Notes: generated from the sequence alone by a model not told the origin. A stretch of DNA of 64,000 nucleotides from an archaeon (GCA_035390665.1 DAOOUC010000001.1:10651-74650); one strand, 5' to 3'; positions 2,026 through 64,000 are shown, counted from the first letter of the stretch. Translations and numbers: made by a program.

Positions 2026-4149
2026 TCACATAGATGTGTTGTCTATTGGTTTTAAATAACCGTTCTTTGGCTCGTATAGTTCTCCAGATTTCTTTAGTCT
2101 TGAAATTGCATCATTTAATTTGTCTTTACCTATGTTTTGTTTTTCTAAAGTTTCTGAAAGGTCTCCATAGGAAACAGGATTGCCGTTAGTGGTCATATCT
2201 CTTATAATATTTAAAACTCTTTTAATAAATTGTCTTTCGCTTGATGATGTTCCTGTTGTTATTATGTCGATATCTATCTTTCCGGTCTCTTGATCTGTTG
2301 CTGTTTGCTCTAAAGATATTTTAAAAATTCTAATTGCTCTTTGTGCGTCCTCTAATTCTATTTTACTTTTTAATCTTACTTTTGCACTGGCTTCAGAAAG
2401 TCTTATTAGACCTTCTAACTGTCTTGGGGTTGCTGAATAACTTCCGTGCCTTCTTCCAAGATCTCTTAAGTCAATATAATAGTTTAGTATTAGATTTGAG
2501 GCTTCTTTACTTAAGGTAGGTTTTATTCTTTGTCTTGCATAAGCAACATATTTCTTGAAAAGGTTTGCATCAACTTTTGGTAAAACTGTTTCTTCCATTC
2601 TTTCAATTTCTTCTTTTGTTAATTCCATATTTGGAGTTGAAAGTTTTTGGGCAGCTTCTTGAACATCAATAATGTGTTTTCCCATTTCTATATCTAAAGT
2701 TCTGTTCAATGTGTCTTTTATTATAAAATATAAATCAAATCTAGAAAGAAGAGAAAATGGTAAATCAATTTGCTCTATTGGATTTTTTACTTTATCAAAT
2801 CTATTAAACTTTGGATTAGCGGCTGCAAGAATGGAAGTGTCTGCTCTAAACTTAGCATAGAGTCCTGCCTTAGAAACAGAAACTGTTGCTTGAGCCATTG
2901 CTTCGTGAAGGGAACTTCTATCTTCTGGTTCCATCTTATCAAATTCATCAATCATGGCTATACCACCACTAGCAAGAACAACAGCTCCAGCTTTAAGTGT
3001 CCAGCCACCTTCTCCAAAATCGTCTTTAATTGCACTTACTGTTAAACCTGCACCAGATGCGGACTTTCCTGCAACATACATACTTTTTGGTGCAATTGTT
3101 GCTGCGTTTCTTAATAGTTCGGACTTACCTGTTGAGGGGTCACCAACTAGAAGAACATGAATGTTTCCTCTAAACTCTTGTTTGTTTACTTTCTTTTTCA
3201 CACCACCAAACATTTGTAAGGTGATTGCCTCTTTAACAATTTCGTGACCATAAATCTTTGGAGCAATTGATTGTGTTAATAATTCAAAGACATCTTCTTT
3301 TTTTGCAAGTTGTTTAATCTCTTGTTCTTCTTCAGGAGTAATGTCTAATTCTTCAAATTCTTGATCTATTTTTTCTAAATGATTTGCAATTATGAATTTG
3401 TTATAGTTTGCTTCCTTTTGTGGTTTTAATTTTACAACACCTGTAACAATTACTTTATCTCCTGCTGAACAGGTGTTAACAAGATCATCAGAGATATAAA
3501 CTTCTAAATGATTTGCTTGTTCACTTCCTTTTAGATTTTCAATTGATTCTTGAATTTCTAGTTTCTGATAATCAATAAATTTACTTTGTTCTAAATCTAT
3601 ATCGAAATCTCTTGATTTACAATCACATATTGCTGGTTTAGAAAGAGTTGAACTTGTCTGCTTAATAGTGTAAGTGTTCTGACATTTTTTACATACAAAT
3701 AGTCCTTCGGTCATTTTCTGTAATCTTTCTGTTATTCTTCTTATCATTCCTTCAACAGAAATTAAAATCGTTAATTGATCAGAACCAACATCTCTTATTG
3801 GAACTCTAAATTCCTCTGGGAGATTAAAAAACCTTATGTGTGGTTCAAAGTTTTGATCTGTTTGTTCTAAGATACCAACATCTATTTTTTTTAATGCTGC
3901 TTTTGCTGCTTCAAAGATTAGATTTGGATTTTCTATTAATCTTTCTGAAAGATTTAAATCAAATGCTTCAAGTTTTTTAAAATCTAAATTTAGACTTCTT
4001 TTTTCAGGATAATTAGATGCTAAATATTCTATTTCTTTTTTGTAAACAACATTAAAGAAATCTTCAAAAACAGAAATATACTCGTCAAGTCCTGATTCGT
4101 TTACAGAACTAGAATTGTCTTCAAATCCTTCAAAATCAAACTCTGCCAT
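2026..4149 (-). CDS. mcm: MCM replicative helicase
   Basis: 707 aa. Zn finger CKKCQ...CDCKS, Walker A GDPSTGKS, Walker B MIDEFDKM, arginine finger SRFDL, C-terminal winged-helix-like tail. Confidence 0.95.
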   Translation of the reverse strand: MAEFDFEGFEDNSSSVNESGLDEYISVFEDFFNVVYKKEIEYLASNYPEKRSLNLDFKKLEAFDLNLSERLIENPNLIFEAAKAALKKIDVGILEQTDQNFEPHIRFFNLPEEFRVPIRDVGSDQLTILISVEGMIRRITERLQKMTEGLFVCKKCQNTYTIKQTSSTLSKPAICDCKSRDFDIDLEQSKFIDYQKLEIQESIENLKGSEQANHLEVYISDDLVNTCSAGDKVIVTGVVKLKPQKEANYNKFIIANHLEKIDQEFEELDITPEEEQEIKQLAKKEDVFELLTQSIAPKIYGHEIVKEAITLQMFGGVKKKVNKQEFRGNIHVLLVGDPSTGKSELLRNAATIAPKSMYVAGKSASGAGLTVSAIKDDFGEGGWTLKAGAVVLASGGIAMIDEFDKMEPEDRSSLHEAMAQATVSVSKAGLYAKFRADTSILAAANPKFNRFDKVKNPIEQIDLPFSLLSRFDLYFIIKDTLNRTLDIEMGKHIIDVQEAAQKLSTPNMELTKEEIERMEETVLPKVDANLFKKYVAYARQRIKPTLSKEASNLILNYYIDLRDLGRRHGSYSATPRQLEGLIRLSEASAKVRLKSKIELEDAQRAIRIFKISLEQTATDQETGKIDIDIITTGTSSSERQFIKRVLNIIRDMTTNGNPVSYGDLSETLEKQNIGKDKLNDAISRLKKSGELYEPKNGYLKPIDNTSM

Positions 4150-4283
4150 TTTTTATTCCTGTTTTTTTGTTTTTAGTTTATAATATATAAGAGCAAACGC
4201 ATTATATTAAAATGCAGGTAAGAAAACCTTGTGAAATTGCTAAAATACTTAAGAAATATTACAGGAAGTGAAGGGGTTTTTAC

Positions 4284-4616
4284 CTATAATGGCCTTTTTC
4301 TAGACATTCTTTTATGTATTTTCTTCATCCTTTCTATTCCAGGCACAAGTATTTTTCCTACATTGTCTCTTTTTGCATAAATTTTATCTAGATGCCCTTT
4401 TAATTCTGTTCTTAATAATTTCTTAACTGCTTCTTTATCTTTTGGAACTAAATCATTTACAGGTGTGCTCTTTTGAGCATAGTGTTTTCCTGATTTTGTA
4501 GTTATCTCGTAAAGTTCAAAAGTGTCTGGATCAATTGCTAAAGGGTTATGACCATTATTTAAAGTTCTAATTTTATCTTTTAAATGACGAATGTCTTGCT
4601 TTGAAATATGTGGATT
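4284..4616 (-). other. Start-less 110-codon open frame continuing in phase directly after the TAA stop of 4617..5240
   Basis: Hand translation (minus): TAA(4617-4619) then NPHISKQDIRHLKDKIRTLNNGHNPLAIDPDTFELYEITTKSGKHYAQKSTPVNDLVPKDKEAVKKLLRTELKGHLDKIYAKRDNVGKILVPGIERMKKIHKRMSRKRPL, ending at TAG (4284-4286). There is no ATG/GTG/TTG until near the end. A stop-free run this long is unlikely to be non-coding in such AT-rich DNA. Confidence 0.5.
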
Positions 4617-5240
4617 TTATGCAACCCCTGCAGAAGATTTCATAAACATTCTTTTTTCTTTACCATCAATAGTCACTTTTGCTGTTGTTAAGGTGTTTGC
4701 TCTTATTGCTCTTAAAAAACCAAGATAACTTTCTTTACATGATTGATTTCTAGGGGGCGATAACAAATATTCTTCTCTTATTAATCTTCCGCTCTCTAGT
4801 GTTTTTATTATTCTTTGTATTGGTGTGTGTGTTCCTTCAATTTTATATTGCTTACTTAGTTTTTTTAAATTGACTACAAATAAAGAAAGCTTATTAGCTA
4901 GTTCTAATCCGTTGTATTTTTGAGAAAGTTTATTTAATGATTTTATGATTTCTTTTCTTTCTATATAATGCATATTATTAACATAATCTAAAACTTCATT
5001 TGAAAATATCTTTCCAAAATCTAAAAATTGGCCTCTTATTTTTAGTGAACCAAGAACTTCTTTTCTTGACATTAGGAATTCGTAAAAGTCAGAAATAAAA
5101 TCTTTAGAGGTTAATGCAAGTTCATATTTTTCCTTATCAAAAAAATAAAACTCTGCTCTATCTGCTTTTTGTTTTATAACTATATTTTCTTTTTCTTCTT
5201 CAGGAACGTTTTTTCTTGAAAAAATAAATTCTGTTTTCAT
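4617..5240 (-). CDS. Hypothetical protein in the mcm-rpa cluster (RPA-associated role suggested by position only)
   Basis: 207 aa; starts 8 nt after the rpa-like stop, same strand. No motif recognised. Confidence 0.4.
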   Translation of the reverse strand: MKTEFIFSRKNVPEEEKENIVIKQKADRAEFYFFDKEKYELALTSKDFISDFYEFLMSRKEVLGSLKIRGQFLDFGKIFSNEVLDYVNNMHYIERKEIIKSLNKLSQKYNGLELANKLSLFVVNLKKLSKQYKIEGTHTPIQRIIKTLESGRLIREEYLLSPPRNQSCKESYLGFLRAIRANTLTTAKVTIDGKEKRMFMKSSAGVA

Positions 5241-5248
5241 AAACTATC

Positions 5249-6574
5249 TTACTCTAATTCAAAAGTACTTGCCATAAACTCTAATTGATTAGAGAAATCA
5301 TTCATCTTTGCTTTTCCTGTAACTATTACGTGCTTACCAAATAATTTCTTTTCTGCTTTATAATAGATTTCATCTTTTTCTTCAGGAGTTAAATCTTTTT
5401 TAAGTTCTTCTTTTTTTACTTCAAAGGCGTCTTCTAGTAATTGGTTAAAAAGACTTACTTTTATTACTCCTGTGCCGTCATCAATATTAATTGAAGAGAA
5501 GGTGTTCATTGTTGGATCTACAGGTTTATTACAAGCCTCACAAATAAATTCATTATTTATTAAGAAAACTTTTTCTTTACATTCTGGGCATTTAAATGAC
5601 CTTAATGCTCCTTTGTTAATTGTTACAACTGTTCCACTTATCTTGTAGTTGTTATTATTTTCTAAATTGGATATTTTTTCCTCTTTTATATCTGTTGTTG
5701 TTAATTCTGAAAGACTTGGTATCTTTATTTTTGTTTTTGGATTTTTAGTAATTGTTGAGTTCCAGTTGATATATAGTTCTAACTCAGAATCAAAATTTCT
5801 TTCTTTTATTGTTACATCACTTAATCTTACTAAATCGCCTTTTGAAAAACTATTTGAAATCTCTTTAGCAAATGCATCAAAAGCAACACACCTTATGGAT
5901 TTTATTCCATCACTTACTTCAAAGTTAATTACTTGCCTTTCCTTATCTTCTTTTGTAAATGTTTTTATTGGATAAATATTTATTATTCTTGCAATGGTGT
6001 CTACTGGTGATGTTGGTGGGGAATCAATTTCAGAAATCTTAACTGCGGTCTCTTTTATTTTTGGAATGTCTATTCCTTCAGGATCTTTTATTATTTGTCC
6101 GCCTTGTCTTAATGATAGTTCTGTTTTTTCATTATATTGATTTACTCCTGCATCTTTAATAAGTAACAAATCGTTTTTTTCTAAATTTAATTCTTTAACT
6201 ATCTCTGCTTTATCTTGCCATAAATTTAATTTTATAAAACCTGTTTCGTCTTCTAGGTAAAGTGCTTGAATCTTGCCATCACTTCCATCTTTTGATTTGT
6301 ATATTTTTACTGGAGGAATTGATTTTACTCTTGCATATAAAGAAACAGAATCAATGCTTGCTGAAATTTCAGAAACTTTAGTTATTGCACTAGCTTGTTG
6401 TTTTAAATCCAGATCTACTCCAAATTGCTTTGAAAGAAGAATGTTTGCTCCAACATCACTTAAAAGACCTTCGTATTTAGTTTTTATTTCTTCTAATTTT
6501 GTTTGAAGCTCAGAATCAGATTTTCCTGTTTGTTTTTTAATAATATTATAAATTTGTTCACTTGTAAGTTGCAT
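5249..6574 (-). CDS. rpa: RPA-like single-stranded DNA-binding protein (several OB-fold-like segments plus zinc ribbon)
   Basis: 441 aa. C4 zinc ribbon CPECKEKV...CEACNKPV embedded in an OB-like segment, as in archaeal RPA41/RPA70 DBD-C. Adjacent to mcm. Confidence 0.75.
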   Translation of the reverse strand: MQLTSEQIYNIIKKQTGKSDSELQTKLEEIKTKYEGLLSDVGANILLSKQFGVDLDLKQQASAITKVSEISASIDSVSLYARVKSIPPVKIYKSKDGSDGKIQALYLEDETGFIKLNLWQDKAEIVKELNLEKNDLLLIKDAGVNQYNEKTELSLRQGGQIIKDPEGIDIPKIKETAVKISEIDSPPTSPVDTIARIINIYPIKTFTKEDKERQVINFEVSDGIKSIRCVAFDAFAKEISNSFSKGDLVRLSDVTIKERNFDSELELYINWNSTITKNPKTKIKIPSLSELTTTDIKEEKISNLENNNNYKISGTVVTINKGALRSFKCPECKEKVFLINNEFICEACNKPVDPTMNTFSSINIDDGTGVIKVSLFNQLLEDAFEVKKEELKKDLTPEEKDEIYYKAEKKLFGKHVIVTGKAKMNDFSNQLEFMASTFELE

Positions 6575-6658
6575 TATTTTTCACCTAATATATATTTATG
6601 AAAACAATATATTAAAAAGTTACCTGGAGCGGCCACCTTTTGTAATATTTGGAATTTA

Positions 6659-6985
6659 TTATGTAATTATTTCTCTTAATAATTTCTCTAATTCTAAATA
6701 TATTTCTTTTCTTTTGCTATAGCACAAATAACAAATTTTTTGCATAACTGTATGTTTTGGCAACATAAAAATGTAATTTAATTTTAGTATACTTTCTTTT
6801 ATTAACCCATCTCCTTTAGTCAATCTTATTCCAGACATTTTTAAATTACTAGTTATACCAATAACAACAATATTTTCAAAATCAGAAAATAAAACAAAGG
6901 CAGGCCTTATTTTAGAATTAGAATTATCAATAAATGGAACATCTATTAAAACTATTTCTCCTGCTTTGACCTCCATTTTTCCCAA
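6659..6985 (-). CDS. PemK/MazF-family toxin
   Basis: GEIVLIDVPF...KIRPAFVLF...VVIGITSN matches the MazF/PemK pattern. Overlaps the upstream small gene by 34 nt. Confidence 0.65.
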   Translation of the reverse strand: MGKMEVKAGEIVLIDVPFIDNSNSKIRPAFVLFSDFENIVVIGITSNLKMSGIRLTKGDGLIKESILKLNYIFMLPKHTVMQKICYLCYSKRKEIYLELEKLLREIIT

Positions 6986-52821: not shown

Positions 52822-52850
52822 CTGCTTTTCTCTTTGTTTAAAAAAAGTTA

Positions 52851-52924
52851 TGAGATCGGTGGGATTTGGACCCACGACACATAGGTCTTCAGCCTATTGC
52901 TCTCCCAGGCTGAGCTACGATCTC
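52851..52924 (-). tRNA. tRNA-Phe (GAA)
   Basis: Hand-folded cloverleaf: GAGATCG/CGATCTC acceptor stem, anticodon arm ATAGG-CTGAAGA-CCTAT, T arm GTGGG-TCCAAAT-CCCAC. 74 nt, no encoded CCA, T-run downstream. Confidence 0.9.
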
Positions 52925-52936
52925 ATTAGAGAAATT

Positions 52937-53010
52937 TGAGCCCGATGGGATTTGAACCCACGACACCAAGATTAAGAGTCTTGTGCTCTACCAAGCTGAG
53001 CTACGAGCCC
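52937..53010 (-). tRNA. tRNA-Lys (CUU)
   Basis: Acceptor stem GGGCTCG/CGGGCTC (with G-U pairs), anticodon arm CAAGA-CTCTTAA-TCTTG, T loop TTCAAAT. 74 nt. Confidence 0.9.
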
Positions 53011-53024
53011 AAACTACATTATTC

Positions 53025-53098
53025 TGAACCTGGAGGGATTTGAACCCTCGACACCGGGATTAAAAGTCCCGTGCTCTACCAAGCTGAGCTACAGATCC
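53025..53098 (-). tRNA. tRNA-Lys (UUU)
   Basis: Acceptor stem GGATCTG/CAGGTTC, anticodon arm CGGGA-CTTTTAA-TCCCG, T arm GAGGG-TTCAAAT-CCCTC. 74 nt. Confidence 0.9.
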
Positions 53099-53160
53099 AT
53101 AATATTTTCTTTGGTCGAATAACAATAGCTTATTTAATTAAATAGGATAATATAATATTT

Positions 53161-54337: not shown

Positions 54338-54465
54338 AATTTTCTTTTTTTATTTTAATGAATACATTTTATTTATATAAGTTTTGTATTATATATATAT
54401 TATAACCTTCAAGAATTTCTTTATTTAAAATTACATAATTAATTTATTTTATATAAAAAAATAAT

Positions 54466-54540
54466 AGCGGGGTGGGGCAGTCTGGAGTGCCCGTCGGGCT
54501 CATAACCCGAAGGTCGATGGTTCAAATCCATCCTCCGCTA
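54466..54540 (+). tRNA. Initiator tRNA-Met (CAU)
   Basis: 75 nt. A1:U72 acceptor end (AGCGGGG/CTCCGCT). Anticodon arm TCGGG-CTCATAA-CCCGA with three G:C pairs next to the loop, which is the archaeal initiator hallmark. Confidence 0.85.
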
Positions 54541-54779
54541 TTTTCTAATTTCTTAAAATTATTATTCTATAAATTGATTATTTCTATTAAAAAATATTTG
54601 ATGAAAAACACTAAATCTTGGACAAATTTAGATAATAATTCGAGGACTTAAATTTTAGTTAATATCCCTTAAAATTACTTTATTTTATAAATTAAGACAT
54701 TTAATCTAATTAAAAACACAAATGGGGTTTTTTTACCTATTAAATTAAAATTAAACAGATTTAATTGCTTTTTTATCTG

Positions 54780-57871: not shown

Positions 57872-58115
57872 ACTAATAAAAATTATAAGAAATTATTAAA
57901 AAAGGAGCACATTATGCCGAATTCAAATTTATGTATAAATTTACAATGTAAAATATATCTGATGATTTGTTTCACAATCTAAACTAATAGTTAAAAAAAT
58001 ATCCTTTAGATTCAGATTTTATCTAACTTTAGAGACAAAACCGATTGCCTTTATAAACATAATGACCTTTAGTAGTATTACTTTTTTTAAAATAAAATTA
58101 TCAAAGGTTTTATCA

Positions 58116-61115
58116 ATGGCAACAAAACAAATTATTAACAGAAAAGAAGAAAAAATTGATTATAATATTTACAAAATAAAACTTGCAATACTTAAAGCCC
58201 TTGATGCAATTGATAATCCAGATATTGATTTAGCAGATTATCTTACAAAAAAAATAGATATTAATTTAACAGAAAATTATTTTGATAAAAATAGATGTCC
58301 AACAATTGATGAAATTCAAGACACTGTAGAAGATATATTAATTAAAGAAGGATTGACTAAATTAGTAAAAGCATATGTAATTTATAGAAAACAACACGAT
58401 GATTTTAGAAACATTTCAAAACTCATAGACAGTACAAATGCAGTTGAGAGTTACATAAATATTTCAGATTGGCAAGTTAAGGAAAACAGTAATATGGATT
58501 ATTCATTACAAGGATTAAATAATTATTTATCAACAAAAGTAATATCTGATTATTGGATAAAAAAAATATATCCTTCAGAAATTAGAGAAGCACACGAGAA
58601 AAGGCAACTTCATTTACACGATCTAAATACATTAGGTTCATATTGTGTTGGTTGGGATCTTCAATCTGTTCTACAAACTGGTTTTAGAGGATCTCCAGGT
58701 AAAGTTGTGGCATCTCCACCAAAACATTTAGATACAGCATTAGGACAAATAGTTAATTTTATTTTTACACTTCAAGGAGAATCAGCAGGTGCTCAAGCCT
58801 TTAGTAATTTTGATACCCTTCTTGCCCCATTTATAAGATACGATAATCTTGATTACAAGCAGGTAAGAGCATCCTTAGAGAAATTTATTTATAATATGAA
58901 TGTGCCTACAAGAGTTGGTTTTCAATGTATGTCCCAAGATACAGAAATTCTTACAGAAAATGGGTGGCTTACATATAATGATTTAAAAGTAGGAGATATA
59001 ATAAAAACATTTAACACTAATACAGGTAAAATAGAAGATCTTCCTATAAAAAAATTATTTGCAAGGGAGTACTCTGGCAAAATGTACAATTTAAAAAACA
59101 GAATACAAGATCAGTTAATTTCTCCTAAACACAGAGTTGTAAGAAAAATATTCAATACTAAAAATAAATTTATATTAGAAGAAATTGAAGTTGTTAAAAA
59201 ATATAAATCAGATATTGTTATTCCAATTGCGGGAGATACAAACTACAGAGGAATAAATTGGAGTGATGAAAAAATTAAAATGGTTGCGTGGATTATTGCA
59301 GAAGGAAGTTCCGAGCAGCCTTATCATAAAAATAAAAACTCAAGAAACATAAAAATTTATCAATCTGAAATAAAAAACAATAAAGAATATAAAGAAATAA
59401 AGTCTTTATTAGAATATTTTAAATTTAAATATTCTGAAACCAAACACACAGGACTTGGCGCACCAGTTAATGCAATCAAATTAAATGCTGAATCTTCAAG
59501 AACCATACACTCTTGGTTTGATGATGAAAGCAATATCAAATTTATTCCCATAGATTTATTTAAAGCCAATAAAAAACAAGCAAGATTATTTTTAGAAACC
59601 TATAACAAAGGAGATGGAACAGAGGAATTTAAAATTTCTACAACTTCTGTTGATATACTTTATGGTTTGCAACACATGTGTGTGTTAGCAGGTTATGGTT
59701 TTACTACGCTTTTTAGAAAACCAACCATTGGTACAAAGCCAATTTTTGTTTTAAGAATTATACAACACACAGACACAACAATAACTCAAATTAAAGAAAT
59801 TGATTATAAGGGAATTATATGGTGTCCGAACACAGATAATGAAACTGTTATTGCAAAAAGAAATGGCAAGGTTTTTATTACAGGTAACACCCCATTTTCA
59901 AATATCACTCTTGATTTAACTGTACCATCTACATTTAAAGATACACCAGTTATAATAGCAGGGAAACCACAAGATAAAACATATGGCGAATTCCAAAAAG
60001 AGATGGATATTTTTAATATGGCTTTATTAGATATAATGTACGATGGAGATGCATCTGGAAATATGTTCTCTTTTCCGATACCTACAATTAATGTAACAAA
60101 AGAATTTGATTGGTCAACGCCACTAGCTGATAAATTAATTGATTTAACAATAAAATACGGCACTCCATATTTTGCAAACTTTGTAAATTCTGATATGAAA
60201 CCAGAAGATGCAAGAAGTATGTGTTGTAGATTAAGATTAGATAATAGAGAACTACAAAAAAGAGGAGGAGGATTATTTGGTTCTAATCCTTTAACTGGTT
60301 CTATTGGAGTTGTAACAATAAATCTTGCTCAATTAGGCTATCTATCAAAATCAGAAGAAGAATATTTTGAAAATTTAGGTCATCTAATGGATCTTGCTAA
60401 AAAATCTTTAGATATAAAAAGAAAAATTGTAGAAAAATATACTGATGATGGGTTATATCCTTATTCTAAATTTAATTTAAAAAGTATAAAAGACAGATTT
60501 GGTACTTATTGGAAGAATCATTTCTCAACTATAGGTTTACTTGGTTTAAATGAATCCGCAATAAATTTTATGGGAGAAGGAATATATACAGAAAAAGGGC
60601 TAGCTTTTGCAAATAAAGTTATGGACTTTATGAGAGAGAAAATACAAAAGTATCAAGAAGAGACTGGAGCCTTATATAATCTTGAAGCAACACCAGGAGA
60701 AGGAACAACCTATAGATTTGCAAGTTATGATAAAAAGAAATATCCTTCTATAGTTGTTGCAAATGAAGAAAATTACAAGAATAATGGAGCACAACCATAT
60801 TATACAAATTCATCTATGCTTCCAGTAACTTATACAAATGATATATTTGAAGTTTTAGAATTACAAGACGAATTGCAATGTAAATATACAGGTGGAACAG
60901 TAATACACATATTTATTGGAGAAAAAAAACCATCAAGAGAAGCAATTAAATCATTAATACAAAAAATAACAACCAATTATAAATTACCTTACTTTACATT
61001 TACGCCTACATTTTCGGTGTGTCCAAAACACGGGTATATTTTTGGAGAACATGAATATTGTCCATTATGTGATGAAGAAATAGGTTATAAGGAAAATAAA
61101 AATACGGGGGAATAA
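58116..61115 (+). CDS. nrdD: Anaerobic (class III) ribonucleoside-triphosphate reductase NrdD, intein-containing, ending before the glycyl-radical loop
   Basis: ATP-cone-like N-terminus. The NrdD core is collinear to the C-terminal zinc ribbon CPKH...CPLC. Start preferred at MATKQ (58116). Stops at TAA 61113-61115 without an RVxGY motif. Confidence 0.85.
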   Translation: MATKQIINRKEEKIDYNIYKIKLAILKALDAIDNPDIDLADYLTKKIDINLTENYFDKNRCPTIDEIQDTVEDILIKEGLTKLVKAYVIYRKQHDDFRNISKLIDSTNAVESYINISDWQVKENSNMDYSLQGLNNYLSTKVISDYWIKKIYPSEIREAHEKRQLHLHDLNTLGSYCVGWDLQSVLQTGFRGSPGKVVASPPKHLDTALGQIVNFIFTLQGESAGAQAFSNFDTLLAPFIRYDNLDYKQVRASLEKFIYNMNVPTRVGFQCMSQDTEILTENGWLTYNDLKVGDIIKTFNTNTGKIEDLPIKKLFAREYSGKMYNLKNRIQDQLISPKHRVVRKIFNTKNKFILEEIEVVKKYKSDIVIPIAGDTNYRGINWSDEKIKMVAWIIAEGSSEQPYHKNKNSRNIKIYQSEIKNNKEYKEIKSLLEYFKFKYSETKHTGLGAPVNAIKLNAESSRTIHSWFDDESNIKFIPIDLFKANKKQARLFLETYNKGDGTEEFKISTTSVDILYGLQHMCVLAGYGFTTLFRKPTIGTKPIFVLRIIQHTDTTITQIKEIDYKGIIWCPNTDNETVIAKRNGKVFITGNTPFSNITLDLTVPSTFKDTPVIIAGKPQDKTYGEFQKEMDIFNMALLDIMYDGDASGNMFSFPIPTINVTKEFDWSTPLADKLIDLTIKYGTPYFANFVNSDMKPEDARSMCCRLRLDNRELQKRGGGLFGSNPLTGSIGVVTINLAQLGYLSKSEEEYFENLGHLMDLAKKSLDIKRKIVEKYTDDGLYPYSKFNLKSIKDRFGTYWKNHFSTIGLLGLNESAINFMGEGIYTEKGLAFANKVMDFMREKIQKYQEETGALYNLEATPGEGTTYRFASYDKKKYPSIVVANEENYKNNGAQPYYTNSSMLPVTYTNDIFEVLELQDELQCKYTGGTVIHIFIGEKKPSREAIKSLIQKITTNYKLPYFTFTPTFSVCPKHGYIFGEHEYCPLCDEEIGYKENKNTGE
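58926..59888 (+). mobile_element. Intein (321 aa) with a LAGLIDADG homing-endonuclease domain inside nrdD
   Basis: Begins with Cys (CMSQDTEILTENG) after extein ...RVGFQ. Block B-like SPKH. LAGLIDADG-like VAWIIAEGSS and FLETYNKGDG. Ends VFITGN, followed by Thr+1 (TPFSNITLD). The joined exteins read GFQ-TPFSN. Confidence 0.85.
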
Positions 61116-61118
61116 AAG

Positions 61119-61265
61119 ATGAATAATGAAATAGAAGCAAAAAGACAGAAATGTGAAATTTATTCTAGAGTTGTAGGATATGTTAGAAGAATAGATGCCT
61201 GGAATTATGGTAAACAAGCAGAATTTCACGATAGAAAATTATTTTCTGTTCCAGAAAACAAATAA
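61119..61265 (+). CDS. 48-aa ORF encoding the NrdD glycyl-radical loop
   Basis: MNNEIEAKRQKCEIYSRVVGYVRRIDAWNYGKQAEFHDRKLFSVPENK contains the SRVVGY (RVxGY) glycyl-radical motif. It is in the same frame as nrdD, 2 codons after its TAA. A GGGGG run at 61106-61110 lies 8 nt before the ATG. Confidence 0.75.
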   Translation: MNNEIEAKRQKCEIYSRVVGYVRRIDAWNYGKQAEFHDRKLFSVPENK

Positions 61266-61278
61266 TGGTAATTAAAAT

Positions 61279-61944
61279 ATGCCTTTAAGAATAGGAGCAA
61301 TTGAAAAGTTTAGTACAATAGATTATCCAAATAAAATTGCTTGTGTTATTTTTTTAAAGGGGTGTAATTTCAATTGTGGTTTTTGTTATAATAAGCAATT
61401 GGTATTACCTGAGCTTTTCGATTCCAAACCAGACGTTCTTGAAAGTGAAATACACTATTTCTTGGACAAACGAAAAGGTCTTCTCGATGCTGTTGTTATT
61501 ACAGGCGGAGAACCCACAATTTTTGGAAAAGATTTAATTGATTTTATAAAAAAAATTAAAGAAAAAAGTTACCTTGTAAAACTAGATACAAATGGGTCTA
61601 ATCCCGAAATATTAAAAGAAATATTAGACAATAATCTTGTAGATTATGTTGCTATGGATTTAAAAGATATTTTTGAAAATTATAATAACTATACAAAAGT
61701 TCCAAATAAAAATATCAAGACTTCATTTGAGCTATTAAAAAATTCAAAAATTCCCCACGAATTTAGAATTACTACGCACCCCGAGCTGACGTTGAATAAT
61801 TTTAATAAAATAATAGAAACAGCAAAAGGAGAAAAAATATTTGTCCAAGATTTCGTAAACACTAATACTATAAAAGAATATAAAGAAAATAAAACTATAT
61901 ATTCAAAACTTTCAAAAGCAAGTAAAGATTATATTTTAAGATAA
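61279..61944 (+). CDS. nrdG: Anaerobic RNR activating enzyme NrdG (radical SAM)
   Basis: GCNFNCGFCYN (Cx3Cx2C) near the N-terminus, GGEPT SAM-binding motif. 221 aa, adjacent to nrdD. Confidence 0.85.
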   Translation: MPLRIGAIEKFSTIDYPNKIACVIFLKGCNFNCGFCYNKQLVLPELFDSKPDVLESEIHYFLDKRKGLLDAVVITGGEPTIFGKDLIDFIKKIKEKSYLVKLDTNGSNPEILKEILDNNLVDYVAMDLKDIFENYNNYTKVPNKNIKTSFELLKNSKIPHEFRITTHPELTLNNFNKIIETAKGEKIFVQDFVNTNTIKEYKENKTIYSKLSKASKDYILR

Positions 61945-61958
61945 ATAAGTGATTAAAA

Positions 61959-64000
61959 ATGGTTTTTGTAAATACAATTAAAAATAAAAATGGAGAAACA
62001 GAAGAGTTTTCAAAAGAAAGACTAGCAATAATGTTGTTTGAAAACATGTGTAATCTTGGAGAACCTAATCTTAATCTAGCAGAAAAGTTAGCATTTTTAA
62101 TCTATGATAAAGTAAATGCCAAATTTTCAAAGGAAATTTTACAAGAAAAATTAGACGAGATAATTAAAGAAACCCTTCATCAAGAAAATCAAGGAGAGCT
62201 CCTACAAGCATATATTTTTAAAAAAAACAAACCAGAAGCCGCTCAAGCAGATAGTGAATTAAAAGAAATTATTCTAAAACAAATAATAAATATTGACGAA
62301 TCCGATAATTTATCAACTAAATTAGTAAATATTCATTCTCAAATAAATAAATTACAAAATAATCAACACGAAAAGATAAATAAAAAGATTTTTGAATATA
62401 TCAGAGATGGAGTATTTTATCCTAGTTCAACTTTTTTAAGAGAAATAAGTTTGAATCAACAATTGTCTTCAAGTTATTCATTTAAAATCCAAGATTCAAT
62501 TGAAAGCATTTTTGATACATTATCTCAATCAAGTATTGTTCAAAAATATGGTTCTTCAATTTCAATAGATTTATCAAGAATTAGATCAGAAAAAGAAAAA
62601 GTAAAATCTATAAACAGAAATGCCTGTGGACCAATAAGAGTAATTGATCTTTTTGTTTCTGCAAAATCAATGATTGGTTATAATACAAACAGTTCAAATA
62701 ATCTTTATTATATTTCTATAGAACACCCGGATATTGTCTCTTTCTTAAATCACTCAGCTACGACTAAAGAAAATTATGCAGTGTTAATTCCAGATAGATT
62801 CATGAAATCCTTAACAGAAAATTCAGATTATTTTATTGAGATCAATTCTGAAAATAAAATAAAAATTTCTCCTTTAGCATTAATTGATTTAATTTCTTCT
62901 AAAATAATTACTGGAGAAAATATAAATTTAATATTCATAGATTCAATAAATAAAAAGAATCCATTTTTAGATAACTATAAACCATTTACAATATCTTCTA
63001 TAGGATTACAACCTGTTTTTGAAGATAATTCTTTTGCTAGTGGCGTAATCGATGTTTCTAAGTTTGTAAATATTCTAGGAAATACTAAAACCTTTGATTG
63101 GGCAAAATTAAAAGTAGTTATTTGGGACACTTTAGAGTTTCTAGATAATTCAATTGATTTAACTAAAACAATAAATGAGAAATACACACAAGAACTAAAA
63201 GAAACAAGACAAGTCTATATTTCAATTACAGGTTTTTATTCTTTATTATCTAAACTAGGCATTGCTTACGAAAGTGATGATGCAATTTATTTTGCTGATG
63301 CATTGTCTGATTATATTAATTATTATTCAAAACTTAAATCAACAGAACTTGCAAAAGAAAGAGGGCCATTTTTTAAATTTATAAAAAGTAAATACGAATT
63401 GCCTAATTTTTCTTTTGATAAGGCCCCAATTCAAAAAACATTATTTTCTAATGATTTAAATCAAACAAAAAAACTACTTAAAAACATGCCCACAATTGAT
63501 TGGACAGAACTAAGAAACAACATTAAGAAATATGGTTTAAGAAATTCAACAACATTTTCAATAATATTTTCTGATTTTTATTCTGTTGCTAATGAATGTA
63601 GTAATGGAATAGATGCAATTATAAGTTATAAATCTACAATTTGGGTAAATGGCCACAAGTTTGAAAAAATAAATAAAGAACTTAATACACAAGTTTCTGA
63701 TTTAAAATCTAATTGGACACAAAATGAGATTGAATCGTCAGTTCCAGACATCATAAAATCTAAGTTACCACTTGCAAGATCAATATCCCCGCAATTCTTT
63801 ATAAGATTACAATCTGTTTTTGAAAAAAACACAGATGGTTGTACTAACCTAAAGGTTTATTTTACAGATTGCACAAGTATTCAAGACATTAAAAATATTA
63901 TTCTAGAGACACACAGAATAGGAAACACTATTTTTTGTGCAGAAAAAATAAATGGTCATCAAAAAGACTTTAACACAGAAAATAAAAAAGGATTAATGAG
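61959..64000 (+). CDS. Partial CDS (open at window end): ATP-cone plus class II RNR-like protein lacking the canonical catalytic residues
   Basis: Not in the ORF track. Hand translation from ATG 61959 gives 680 codons without a stop. ATP-cone-like IKNKNGETEEFSKERLAIML, then RNR-collinear blocks (GSSISIDLSRIRS, NACGPIRVIDLF, LIFIDSINKKNP, YGLRNSTTFSI). The active-site positions are substituted. Confidence 0.7.
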   Translation, partial: MVFVNTIKNKNGETEEFSKERLAIMLFENMCNLGEPNLNLAEKLAFLIYDKVNAKFSKEILQEKLDEIIKETLHQENQGELLQAYIFKKNKPEAAQADSELKEIILKQIINIDESDNLSTKLVNIHSQINKLQNNQHEKINKKIFEYIRDGVFYPSSTFLREISLNQQLSSSYSFKIQDSIESIFDTLSQSSIVQKYGSSISIDLSRIRSEKEKVKSINRNACGPIRVIDLFVSAKSMIGYNTNSSNNLYYISIEHPDIVSFLNHSATTKENYAVLIPDRFMKSLTENSDYFIEINSENKIKISPLALIDLISSKIITGENINLIFIDSINKKNPFLDNYKPFTISSIGLQPVFEDNSFASGVIDVSKFVNILGNTKTFDWAKLKVVIWDTLEFLDNSIDLTKTINEKYTQELKETRQVYISITGFYSLLSKLGIAYESDDAIYFADALSDYINYYSKLKSTELAKERGPFFKFIKSKYELPNFSFDKAPIQKTLFSNDLNQTKKLLKNMPTIDWTELRNNIKKYGLRNSTTFSIIFSDFYSVANECSNGIDAIISYKSTIWVNGHKFEKINKELNTQVSDLKSNWTQNEIESSVPDIIKSKLPLARSISPQFFIRLQSVFEKNTDGCTNLKVYFTDCTSIQDIKNIILETHRIGNTIFCAEKINGHQKDFNTENKKGLM

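Follow-up and report, generated by a model that had tools for sequence, protein, structure and literature searches.

The stretch of archaeal DNA analysed here (GCA_035390665.1 DAOOUC010000001.1:10651-74650; 64,000 nucleotides (nt), the whole of which we call the window) carries nrdD, the gene for a class III ribonucleotide reductase (RNR), which makes the precursors of DNA and is sensitive to oxygen, in two pieces. One open reading frame (ORF) encodes the enzyme body and stops just past the C-terminal zinc ribbon, and the glycyl-radical loop lies on a second, 48-codon ORF with its own start signals. On the evidence set out below, we consider it probable, at roughly 85%, that this class III RNR is naturally encoded and made as two polypeptides.

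Layout of the nrdD locus

The mechanical ORF upstream of the junction (58062..61115) terminates in ...CPKHGYIFGEHEYCPLCDEEIGYKENKNTGE followed by the stop, and the downstream 48-codon ORF (61119..61265) encodes MNNEIEAKRQKCEIYSRVVGYVRRIDAWNYGKQAEFHDRKLFSVPENK. Read from the window sequence, the order at the junction is GGGGG, TAA, AAG (61116-61118) and ATG (61119-61121); the two ORFs share a frame and are separated by that single AAG sense codon. A first-pass annotation of the window had described a stop just past the zinc ribbon and an ATG, with GGGGG 8 nt upstream, opening a 48-codon frame with an RVxGY glycyl-radical loop, and the sequence bears out each of these elements (Table 1). In the Pfam NRDD profile (PF13597) the body covers positions up to 529 of 562 and the short ORF takes 530-562 (E 5e-9), and the NrdD models of NCBIfam divide between the two products at the same place. 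Body and short ORF take consecutive parts of the profile, which puts the break precisely at the boundary of zinc ribbon and glycine loop. The GGGGG run is unspecific inside the window, which holds 18 plus-strand copies with just 2 near an ATG, so the argument for a Shine-Dalgarno (SD) signal rests on conservation across species and not on window statistics.

Table 1. Features of the split nrdD locus, in window coordinates (HMM, hidden Markov model; aa, amino acids)
Feature	Position	Strand	Basis or remark
nrdD body: ATP-cone, class III RNR barrel, C-terminal zinc ribbon, without glycyl-radical loop	58116..61115	+	Family HMMs, alignment
Intein, 321 aa, body residues 289-609	58926..59888	+	Exact alignment gap versus P0235 and P0237
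Zinc ribbon CPKH-x9-CPLC, last conserved structural element of the body, then tail D-E-E-I-G-Y	61020..61070	+	Aligned to Thermotoga maritima NrdD 4COI
GGGGG, SD-like run	61106..61110	+	8 nt upstream of module ATG, within last body codons
Body stop codon TAA	61113..61115	+	Identical in independent assemblies L087-L094
Glycyl-radical module gene, 48 aa and stop	61119..61265	+	RVVGY loop and C-terminal WNxGKQAEFxDR segment
nrdG, radical-SAM activase of class III RNR	61279..61944	+	TIGR02495 NrdG2 E 1e-52; Radical_SAM E 3e-20
Second RNR catalytic-subunit gene (ATP-cone and Ribonuc_red_lgC)	61959..64000	+	Runs off window end

The body is 999 aa long before intein splicing and 678 aa after it. Its probable true start is M19, as judged by alignment to the intein-less relatives P0235 and P0237, and the gene called in the same-strain locus L087 likewise has 999 aa. 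It scores 561 bits against PF13597 (cut-off 26; E 3e-168), 954 bits against PRK08270 (cut-off 548) and 478 bits against TIGR02487 (cut-off 326), and it contains an ATP-cone match (E 9e-13). In a 32-sequence alignment of homologues (A3), the finger-loop motif S380-M381-C382-C383-x-L-R-L (SMCCRLRL) is invariant at the sequence level, as are the zinc ligands C648, H651, C661 and C664; the ribbon takes the form CxxH...CxxC in 119 of 120 body homologues. What a class III RNR would be expected to have and this body does not is the RVxGY loop at its C-terminus, which sits instead on the separate 48-aa ORF.

The body also carries a 321-aa insert that interrupts a conserved stretch between PTRVGFQ, ending in Q288, and TPFSNITLD, beginning with T610. 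Its first residue is C289, its last N609 and the +1 residue T610; given the Cys start, the Asn end, the +1 Thr and the exact insertion, we read the insert as an intein, albeit one whose penultimate residue is Gly and not His. Pfam returns only a faint Hint_2 match (E 0.11), and the boundaries were therefore taken from the alignment. Among close relatives, L001 (997 aa) has the insert and L004 (676 aa) lacks it. By these hallmarks the insert is an intein, and the body is otherwise intact.

The radical glycine of the short ORF, hereafter the module, is Gly20 (codon 61176-61178), within the motif SRVVGY. The module matches NRDD-family models only, in both Pfam and NCBIfam, without a match to the Gly_radical family of the pyruvate formate-lyase (PFL) type, and its alignment to the 743-residue Prevotella copri NrdD is weak (E 0.13) and covers residues 710-736, where the RVxGY-type motif of that enzyme sits. 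Neither Pfam nor NCBIfam holds a model dedicated to the module, and source annotations call such small ORFs either by the name of the full enzyme or hypothetical protein.

The module is separated from nrdG by 13 nt, and body, module and nrdG are one operon. Directly 3' of nrdG lies a second RNR catalytic-subunit gene, from which it follows that the organism clusters two RNR classes; this gene encodes 682 aa in L087, where 4841..6889 maps to window 61959..64007. The order integrase, nrdD body, module, nrdG, second RNR and CDC48 is kept in relatives, including L001-L004. Elsewhere in the window there is a minus-strand tRNA cluster at 52850-53099, comprising Phe(GAA), Lys(CTT) and Lys(TTT), and a plus-strand tRNA-Met(CAT) at 54465-54541; none of the tRNAs noticed in the window looks like a suppressor.

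Conservation of the split and of its start signals

The exact 48-aa peptide occurs on 9 contigs, which stem from independent samples and assemblers and share the TAA-AAG-ATG junction letter for letter, and the same layout recurs in 4 further assemblies of a 96%-identical lineage. Identity of the junction in at least 8 independent assemblies (Logan, JGI, ENA, NCBI) excludes an assembly error. The peptide, used as a query, gave 87 homologues, all stand-alone (37-84 aa, 59-98% identity) and from archaeal and bacterial metagenome-assembled genomes (MAGs); an exhaustive representative search gave 2176 matches, the best 150 of which are all 44-149 aa long, although some may be fragments cut at contig ends. 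Across 26 diverse stand-alone homologues 10 residues are invariant (S16, R17, V18, V19, G20, G31, K32, A34, E35 and R39), and the ratio of nonsynonymous to synonymous substitution rates (dN/dS) for the peptide core is 0.03-0.09, measured against relatives whose synonymous sites are near saturation. These values show strong purifying selection on the 48-aa peptide.

Archaeal and bacterial phyla share the split even where the peptides are only about 50% identical, and this, together with the purifying selection, excludes a fresh break. Reading the stop as an artefact or a recent inactivation, whether through an assembly or sequencing error or as a freshly broken pseudogene, gains something from a real strain-specific nonsense mutation at 4617, by which the lineage has at least one broken gene. 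Set against the identical junctions, the depth of conservation, the low dN/dS and the absence of the loop from 102 of the 120 closest bodies, that reading retains next to no probability.

The mutation at 4617 had been listed in the first-pass annotation as a second in-frame TAA event, with the same TAA-AA context as the one in nrdD. The stop is there, and it is an event of a different kind. A minus-strand ORF of 207 aa (5240..4617) ends in TAA (4617-4619), and its frame stays open for 110 more codons (window 4287-5240); the interrupted gene, of about 318 aa, conserved and with no known function, lies between RPA (5249..6574) and MCM (2026..4149). All five relatives (52-98% identity) have one continuous protein of 315-319 aa, and the two closest have Glu at the stop position. 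Compared with the 98%-identical relative P0355, the window has a single G>T change that turns GAA into TAA, with the 110 downstream codons identical. That this strain lineage really has the stop follows from the recurrence of the truncated 207-aa ORF on 7 contigs, which come from independent samples. A metagenome-contig scan for relatives of the 110-codon frame beyond the stop was empty, and all five were found by a protein-database search with the concatenated product. By this comparison, 4617 is a strain-specific nonsense mutation with no parallel to the ancient NrdD split.

To survey the module across species, one genome per GTDB species was scanned with the peptide family and the loci were classified by script. 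Picked with patterns derived from split sequences, the survey comprises 56 non-redundant loci, each with an NrdD body that lacks the loop and stops just past the zinc ribbon and with a short ORF that has it. The lineages include archaea, both DPANN (Woese-, Nano-, Micr-, Iain- and Aenigmarchaeota) and Thermoplasmatota, and bacteria, among them many Patescibacteria, Bipolaricaulota/Acetothermia, MAGs of Thermotogae and Gammaproteobacteria, and Halanaerobiales. Starting from the body instead, a search with the C-extein gave 120 closest homologues (63-92% identity, among at least 8000), of which 102 stop soon after the zinc ribbon without a loop and the other 18 are fused. Three of the loop-less bodies were looked up, and in all three the operon also encodes an NRDD-family product of 49-59 aa, which lies either between body and nrdG or downstream of nrdG. 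In Halanaerobium kushneri ATCC 700103, a cultured isolate, the body gene (682 aa) is followed by nrdG and then by a 43-aa module, and L098 has the same gene order.

Two further genomes, a Falkowbacteria MAG (L034) and a Gammaproteobacteria MAG (L045), have 50-53 aa modules with unrelated genes as neighbours and an NrdD body nowhere within 4 kb, which indicates that the two genes are not always adjacent. One stand-alone module, P0089 (66 aa), has two tandem glycine loops (...CEVYSRVVGYLSPVSHWNEGKKEEWEVYSRVVGYLSPVSHWNEGKKEEW...), either an internal duplication or an assembly artefact.

How the two chains would come to be made can be read from the junctions of the 56 split loci. The body stops are TAA in 36, TGA in 16 and TAG in 4, and the three frame offsets occur 12, 23 and 21 times, leaving 44 modules out of frame with their bodies; 15 body-module pairs overlap, and the median gap is 14.5 nt. 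A start codon is present in every module, and an SD-like motif lies at -17 to -4 in 40 of the 56 (71%, a figure slightly inflated by a start-picker that favoured SD-bearing candidates), compared with 20% of control ATGs. Close relatives have a purine-rich SD (GGGGG, AGGAGG or AGGTGA) at a constant distance from the ATG, whether in the spacer or inside the body gene. In the relative L001, an AT-rich spacer of 44 nt lies between the TAATAA that ends the body and AGGGGG, after which the module's ATG opens a different frame.

Programmed readthrough of the TAA at 61113 would give a single fused NrdD, with the downstream ATG and SD irrelevant, and the window taken alone lends itself to this: the ORFs are in frame, one AAG codon apart, and there is a second in-frame TAA at 4617. 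The relatives do not, with their out-of-frame modules (44/56), three different stop codons, a double stop with an AT-rich spacer, overlapping genes and an intervening nrdG, and neither does the conservation of the module's start codon and SD. The use of all three stops and all three frames, the overlaps and the intervening nrdG exclude readthrough as the mechanism. Moreover, TAA is the usual stop of this genome, ending 26 of 38 long ORFs, and at 4617 the stop arose by a GAA>TAA mutation specific to the strain and is not a shared recoding site. We therefore regard readthrough as very unlikely. A general recoding of TAA was considered and rejected on the same count of long ORFs.

Two emphases of the first-pass annotation, the in-frame position of the module and the TAA-AA context, turn out to be incidental: 12 of the 56 relatives are in frame, where chance would give about one-third. 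The window frame is one of three that relatives use equally, and the in-frame stop in this genome is thus a coincidence. The same annotation had left four options for the stop and proposed orthologous nrdD loci as a check; there the split layout, the module start codon and its SD are conserved and the stop is not unique. The comparative evidence speaks for the enzyme in two pieces and against readthrough, assembly error and a fresh break.

Loci of the Bipolaricaulota, Acetothermia and Thermotogae MAGs (L020, L027, L038, L074, L076 and L081) share a conserved N-terminal extension of the module, LNYKEDxDGNLxLEDGTVIP.... In most of them the module starts at GTG or TTG after AAGGAGG and overlaps the 3' end of the body by 23-29 nt, always in the +1 frame. 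Frameshifting was considered for these +1 overlaps and is ruled out by the AAGGAGG and the GTG or TTG start, which mark ordinary overlapping genes.

Fused enzymes among the relatives give some idea of how the junction has evolved. Canonical fused relatives have 4-10 residues from the second CxxC to CEVYSRVVGY. The fused forms L021, L036 and L025, by contrast, have linkers of 21-34 residues that hold both a split-type body tail and a module leader, and they are nested among split relatives in a neighbour-joining tree, a rough distance tree without support values that we used only for the interleaving of fused and split forms. These long-linker forms look like re-fusions or pre-fission intermediates. 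Immediately past the zinc ribbon, 86 of the 102 split bodies have the motif D-x-E-[IM]-G-Y, and none of the 18 fused ones does. Nesting of long-linker fused forms among split ones implies that the covalent link is dispensable; in this clade it has evidently been severed or restored on more than one occasion. An apparent extra short copy in L069 proved to be a spurious motif match in a non-coding frame.

A probable two-chain enzyme and the possible exchange of its radical peptide

Taken together, these observations suggest a two-subunit enzyme. Its large subunit, 678 aa once the intein leaves, would comprise the ATP-cone, the catalytic barrel with the cysteine finger loop and the zinc ribbon. 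The second subunit would be the 48-residue peptide, translated from its own Shine-Dalgarno and ATG and supplying the buried glycine loop with Gly20 and the C-terminal tail. In this arrangement the zinc site would remain on the body, so that only the buried loop and the tail come in trans. We infer a non-covalent fit of the peptide into the barrel, beside the zinc ribbon. NrdG would take the hydrogen of Gly20 either before the peptide binds or once it is bound, and the glycyl radical would then pass to the finger-loop cysteine as in fused enzymes.

Several points weigh against this two-polypeptide reading. When a chimera of the spliced body and the module was modelled with AlphaFold2 on 32 fused and split homologues, the body reached a mean predicted local distance difference test score (pLDDT) of 76, whereas the body tail (672-680) and the module (690-726), the latter covered by just 9 rows of the alignment, scored below 50, so that docking is without structural support. 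With in-frame ORFs one codon apart, a minor readthrough product may be made alongside the two chains, and the genome may encode a second, fused nrdD outside the 64-kb window. The way in which the module-first loci were picked biases the proportions drawn from them, and the body-first sample covers the 120 closest of at least 8000 homologues.

A single-chain enzyme could still be restored after translation if protein ligation or trans-splicing joined the two products into a canonical NrdD, a thought encouraged by the cis-splicing intein that the body already holds. Halves of a split intein, however, would be far longer than the body tail (14 aa) and the module leader (about 10 aa), whose lengths also differ from relative to relative, and Pfam finds no Hint or intein signal at the junction. 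We give post-translational joining hardly any credence.

A separate question is what, if anything, the split is for. Among the surveyed loci, L084 has an 87-aa gene (4214-4477) with a CxxC...CxxC zinc ribbon and a TEVYSRVVGY loop, located between a complete fused nrdD and nrdG, and L068 has the same arrangement (~3060-3400); the two loci come from a Bdellovibrionales MAG and a Patescibacteria MAG. In both, the module coexists with a loop-bearing parent, which it does not at the window locus. This zinc-ribbon gene is the closest analogue of a GrcA-type spare part for an RNR. A second set, in L026, L030, L041, L042, L066 and L070, consists of stand-alone proteins of about 110-130 aa (MTVERLHxLFDE...CHDC...C..C...CEVYSRVVGYLRPV...) with an NrdD-type glycine loop, in frames near 3500-4130 with no NrdD gene within 4 kb; these are mainly from Desulfobacterales and Thermodesulfobacteriota MAGs.

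Oxygen cleaves activated NrdD at the radical glycine, and the activase of pyruvate formate-lyase accepts short peptides as substrates; together, these two facts make a free, replaceable radical peptide plausible. The split might be adaptive, with the 48-aa peptide a consumable, exchangeable radical cofactor: cleavage by O2 would cost the enzyme only that peptide, and a fresh copy could re-arm the 678-aa body. GrcA does as much for pyruvate formate-lyase (PMC8683613; PMC13450708), and the glycyl-radical domain is highly mobile as a whole even in fused NrdD (PMC11226230). The modules with their own zinc ribbon, whether between a complete nrdD and nrdG or, in Desulfobacterales and further lineages, away from any nrdD, suggest that NrdD bodies can take a radical domain in trans. 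The split is also dominant in small-genome symbionts, where the cost of synthesis counts.

Against exchange, nothing in the sequence demands it, and a tightly buried loop may not exchange at all. Repeated fission and re-fusion fits nearly neutral change equally well, and split genes are common in DPANN genomes generally. We therefore put forward the exchangeable cofactor as a tentative idea, one that we would expect to fail rather than to hold. Equally speculative is its extension, that class III RNRs might own a family of autonomous glycyl-radical cofactors, with swappable peptides of about 48 aa in split enzymes and zinc-ribbon proteins of 87-130 aa as true spares. To our knowledge, the only exception in which a glycyl radical is supplied in trans is GrcA for pyruvate formate-lyase. 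If RNR spare parts were real, they would overturn the current statement that limits spare-part proteins to formate-lyases.

Relation to known systems

In a full-text search of open-access papers and bioRxiv we found no description of a split class III RNR or NrdD, although a mention in a subscription journal is possible; the only split RNR in the literature searched is the class II NrdJa/NrdJb. Split NrdD is widespread and yet apparently undescribed. If the two-chain reading is right, no radical-bearing subunit smaller than this separately translated peptide of about 48 residues would be known. The split is also the majority form in a large NrdD clade spanning bacteria of the candidate phyla radiation, DPANN archaea and Halanaerobiales. 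Given the lack of a dedicated family model and the mixed annotation, metabolic reconstructions of uncultured lineages may mistake loop-less bodies for truncated or non-functional enzymes. We also envision that a synthetic, isotopically labelled peptide combined with recombinant body would suit the study of activase access, radical stabilization and O2 repair by subunit exchange.

In supplying a radical loop in trans, the window system would work like GrcA/YfiD, which does so for a large barrel (PMC13450708; PMC8683613). Like the window module, it is small and stand-alone, has an RVxG loop and is presumably armed by the activase of its parent. GrcA, however, is about 127 aa long and a homologue of the PFL C-terminus, whereas the window module has 48 aa, is of the NrdD type (PF13597 only) and lacks a zinc ribbon. 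GrcA stands beside a complete PFL and comes into play only once oxygen has done damage; the adjacent body at the window locus has no loop of its own, which makes the module an obligate part and not a spare. By these family assignments, the window module is not a member of the GrcA family. Nearer to GrcA are the 87-130 aa proteins of L084, L068 and Desulfobacterales, in which zinc ribbon and glycine loop go together.

A catalytic RNR subunit encoded by two adjacent genes whose products must assemble has a precedent in class II NrdJa/NrdJb (PMC9669993). That system differs in its class, in its adenosylcobalamin cofactor, in having no glycyl radical, in its break point and in that both pieces are large.

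Reduced genomes offer another comparison. In the split genes of Nanoarchaeum equitans, a conserved single-chain protein is encoded as two ORFs, and such genes are common in DPANN genomes. The window locus resembles them in dividing a one-chain protein between two ORFs in a small-genome, mostly uncultured lineage. It differs in that the pieces are adjacent in one operon and that one of them, of about 48 aa, holds the catalytic radical; the NrdD split, moreover, reaches many bacterial phyla and the free-living, cultured Halanaerobium.

With canonical NrdD, as known from phage T4, Escherichia coli, Thermotoga maritima (4COI/4U3E) and P. copri (8P23), the window enzyme shares the same HMM matches, the ATP-cone, the barrel, SMCCRLRL and the zinc ribbon, and also the RVxGY loop with its WNxGK tail and the adjacent NrdG activase. 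All characterised enzymes keep the glycine loop after the zinc ribbon on one chain, whereas the window enzyme has a stop, a new start and extra tails between the two, including the D-x-E-I-G-Y tail of the body. Judged by its profiles and motifs, the window system is a class III RNR by every feature tested except single-chain architecture.

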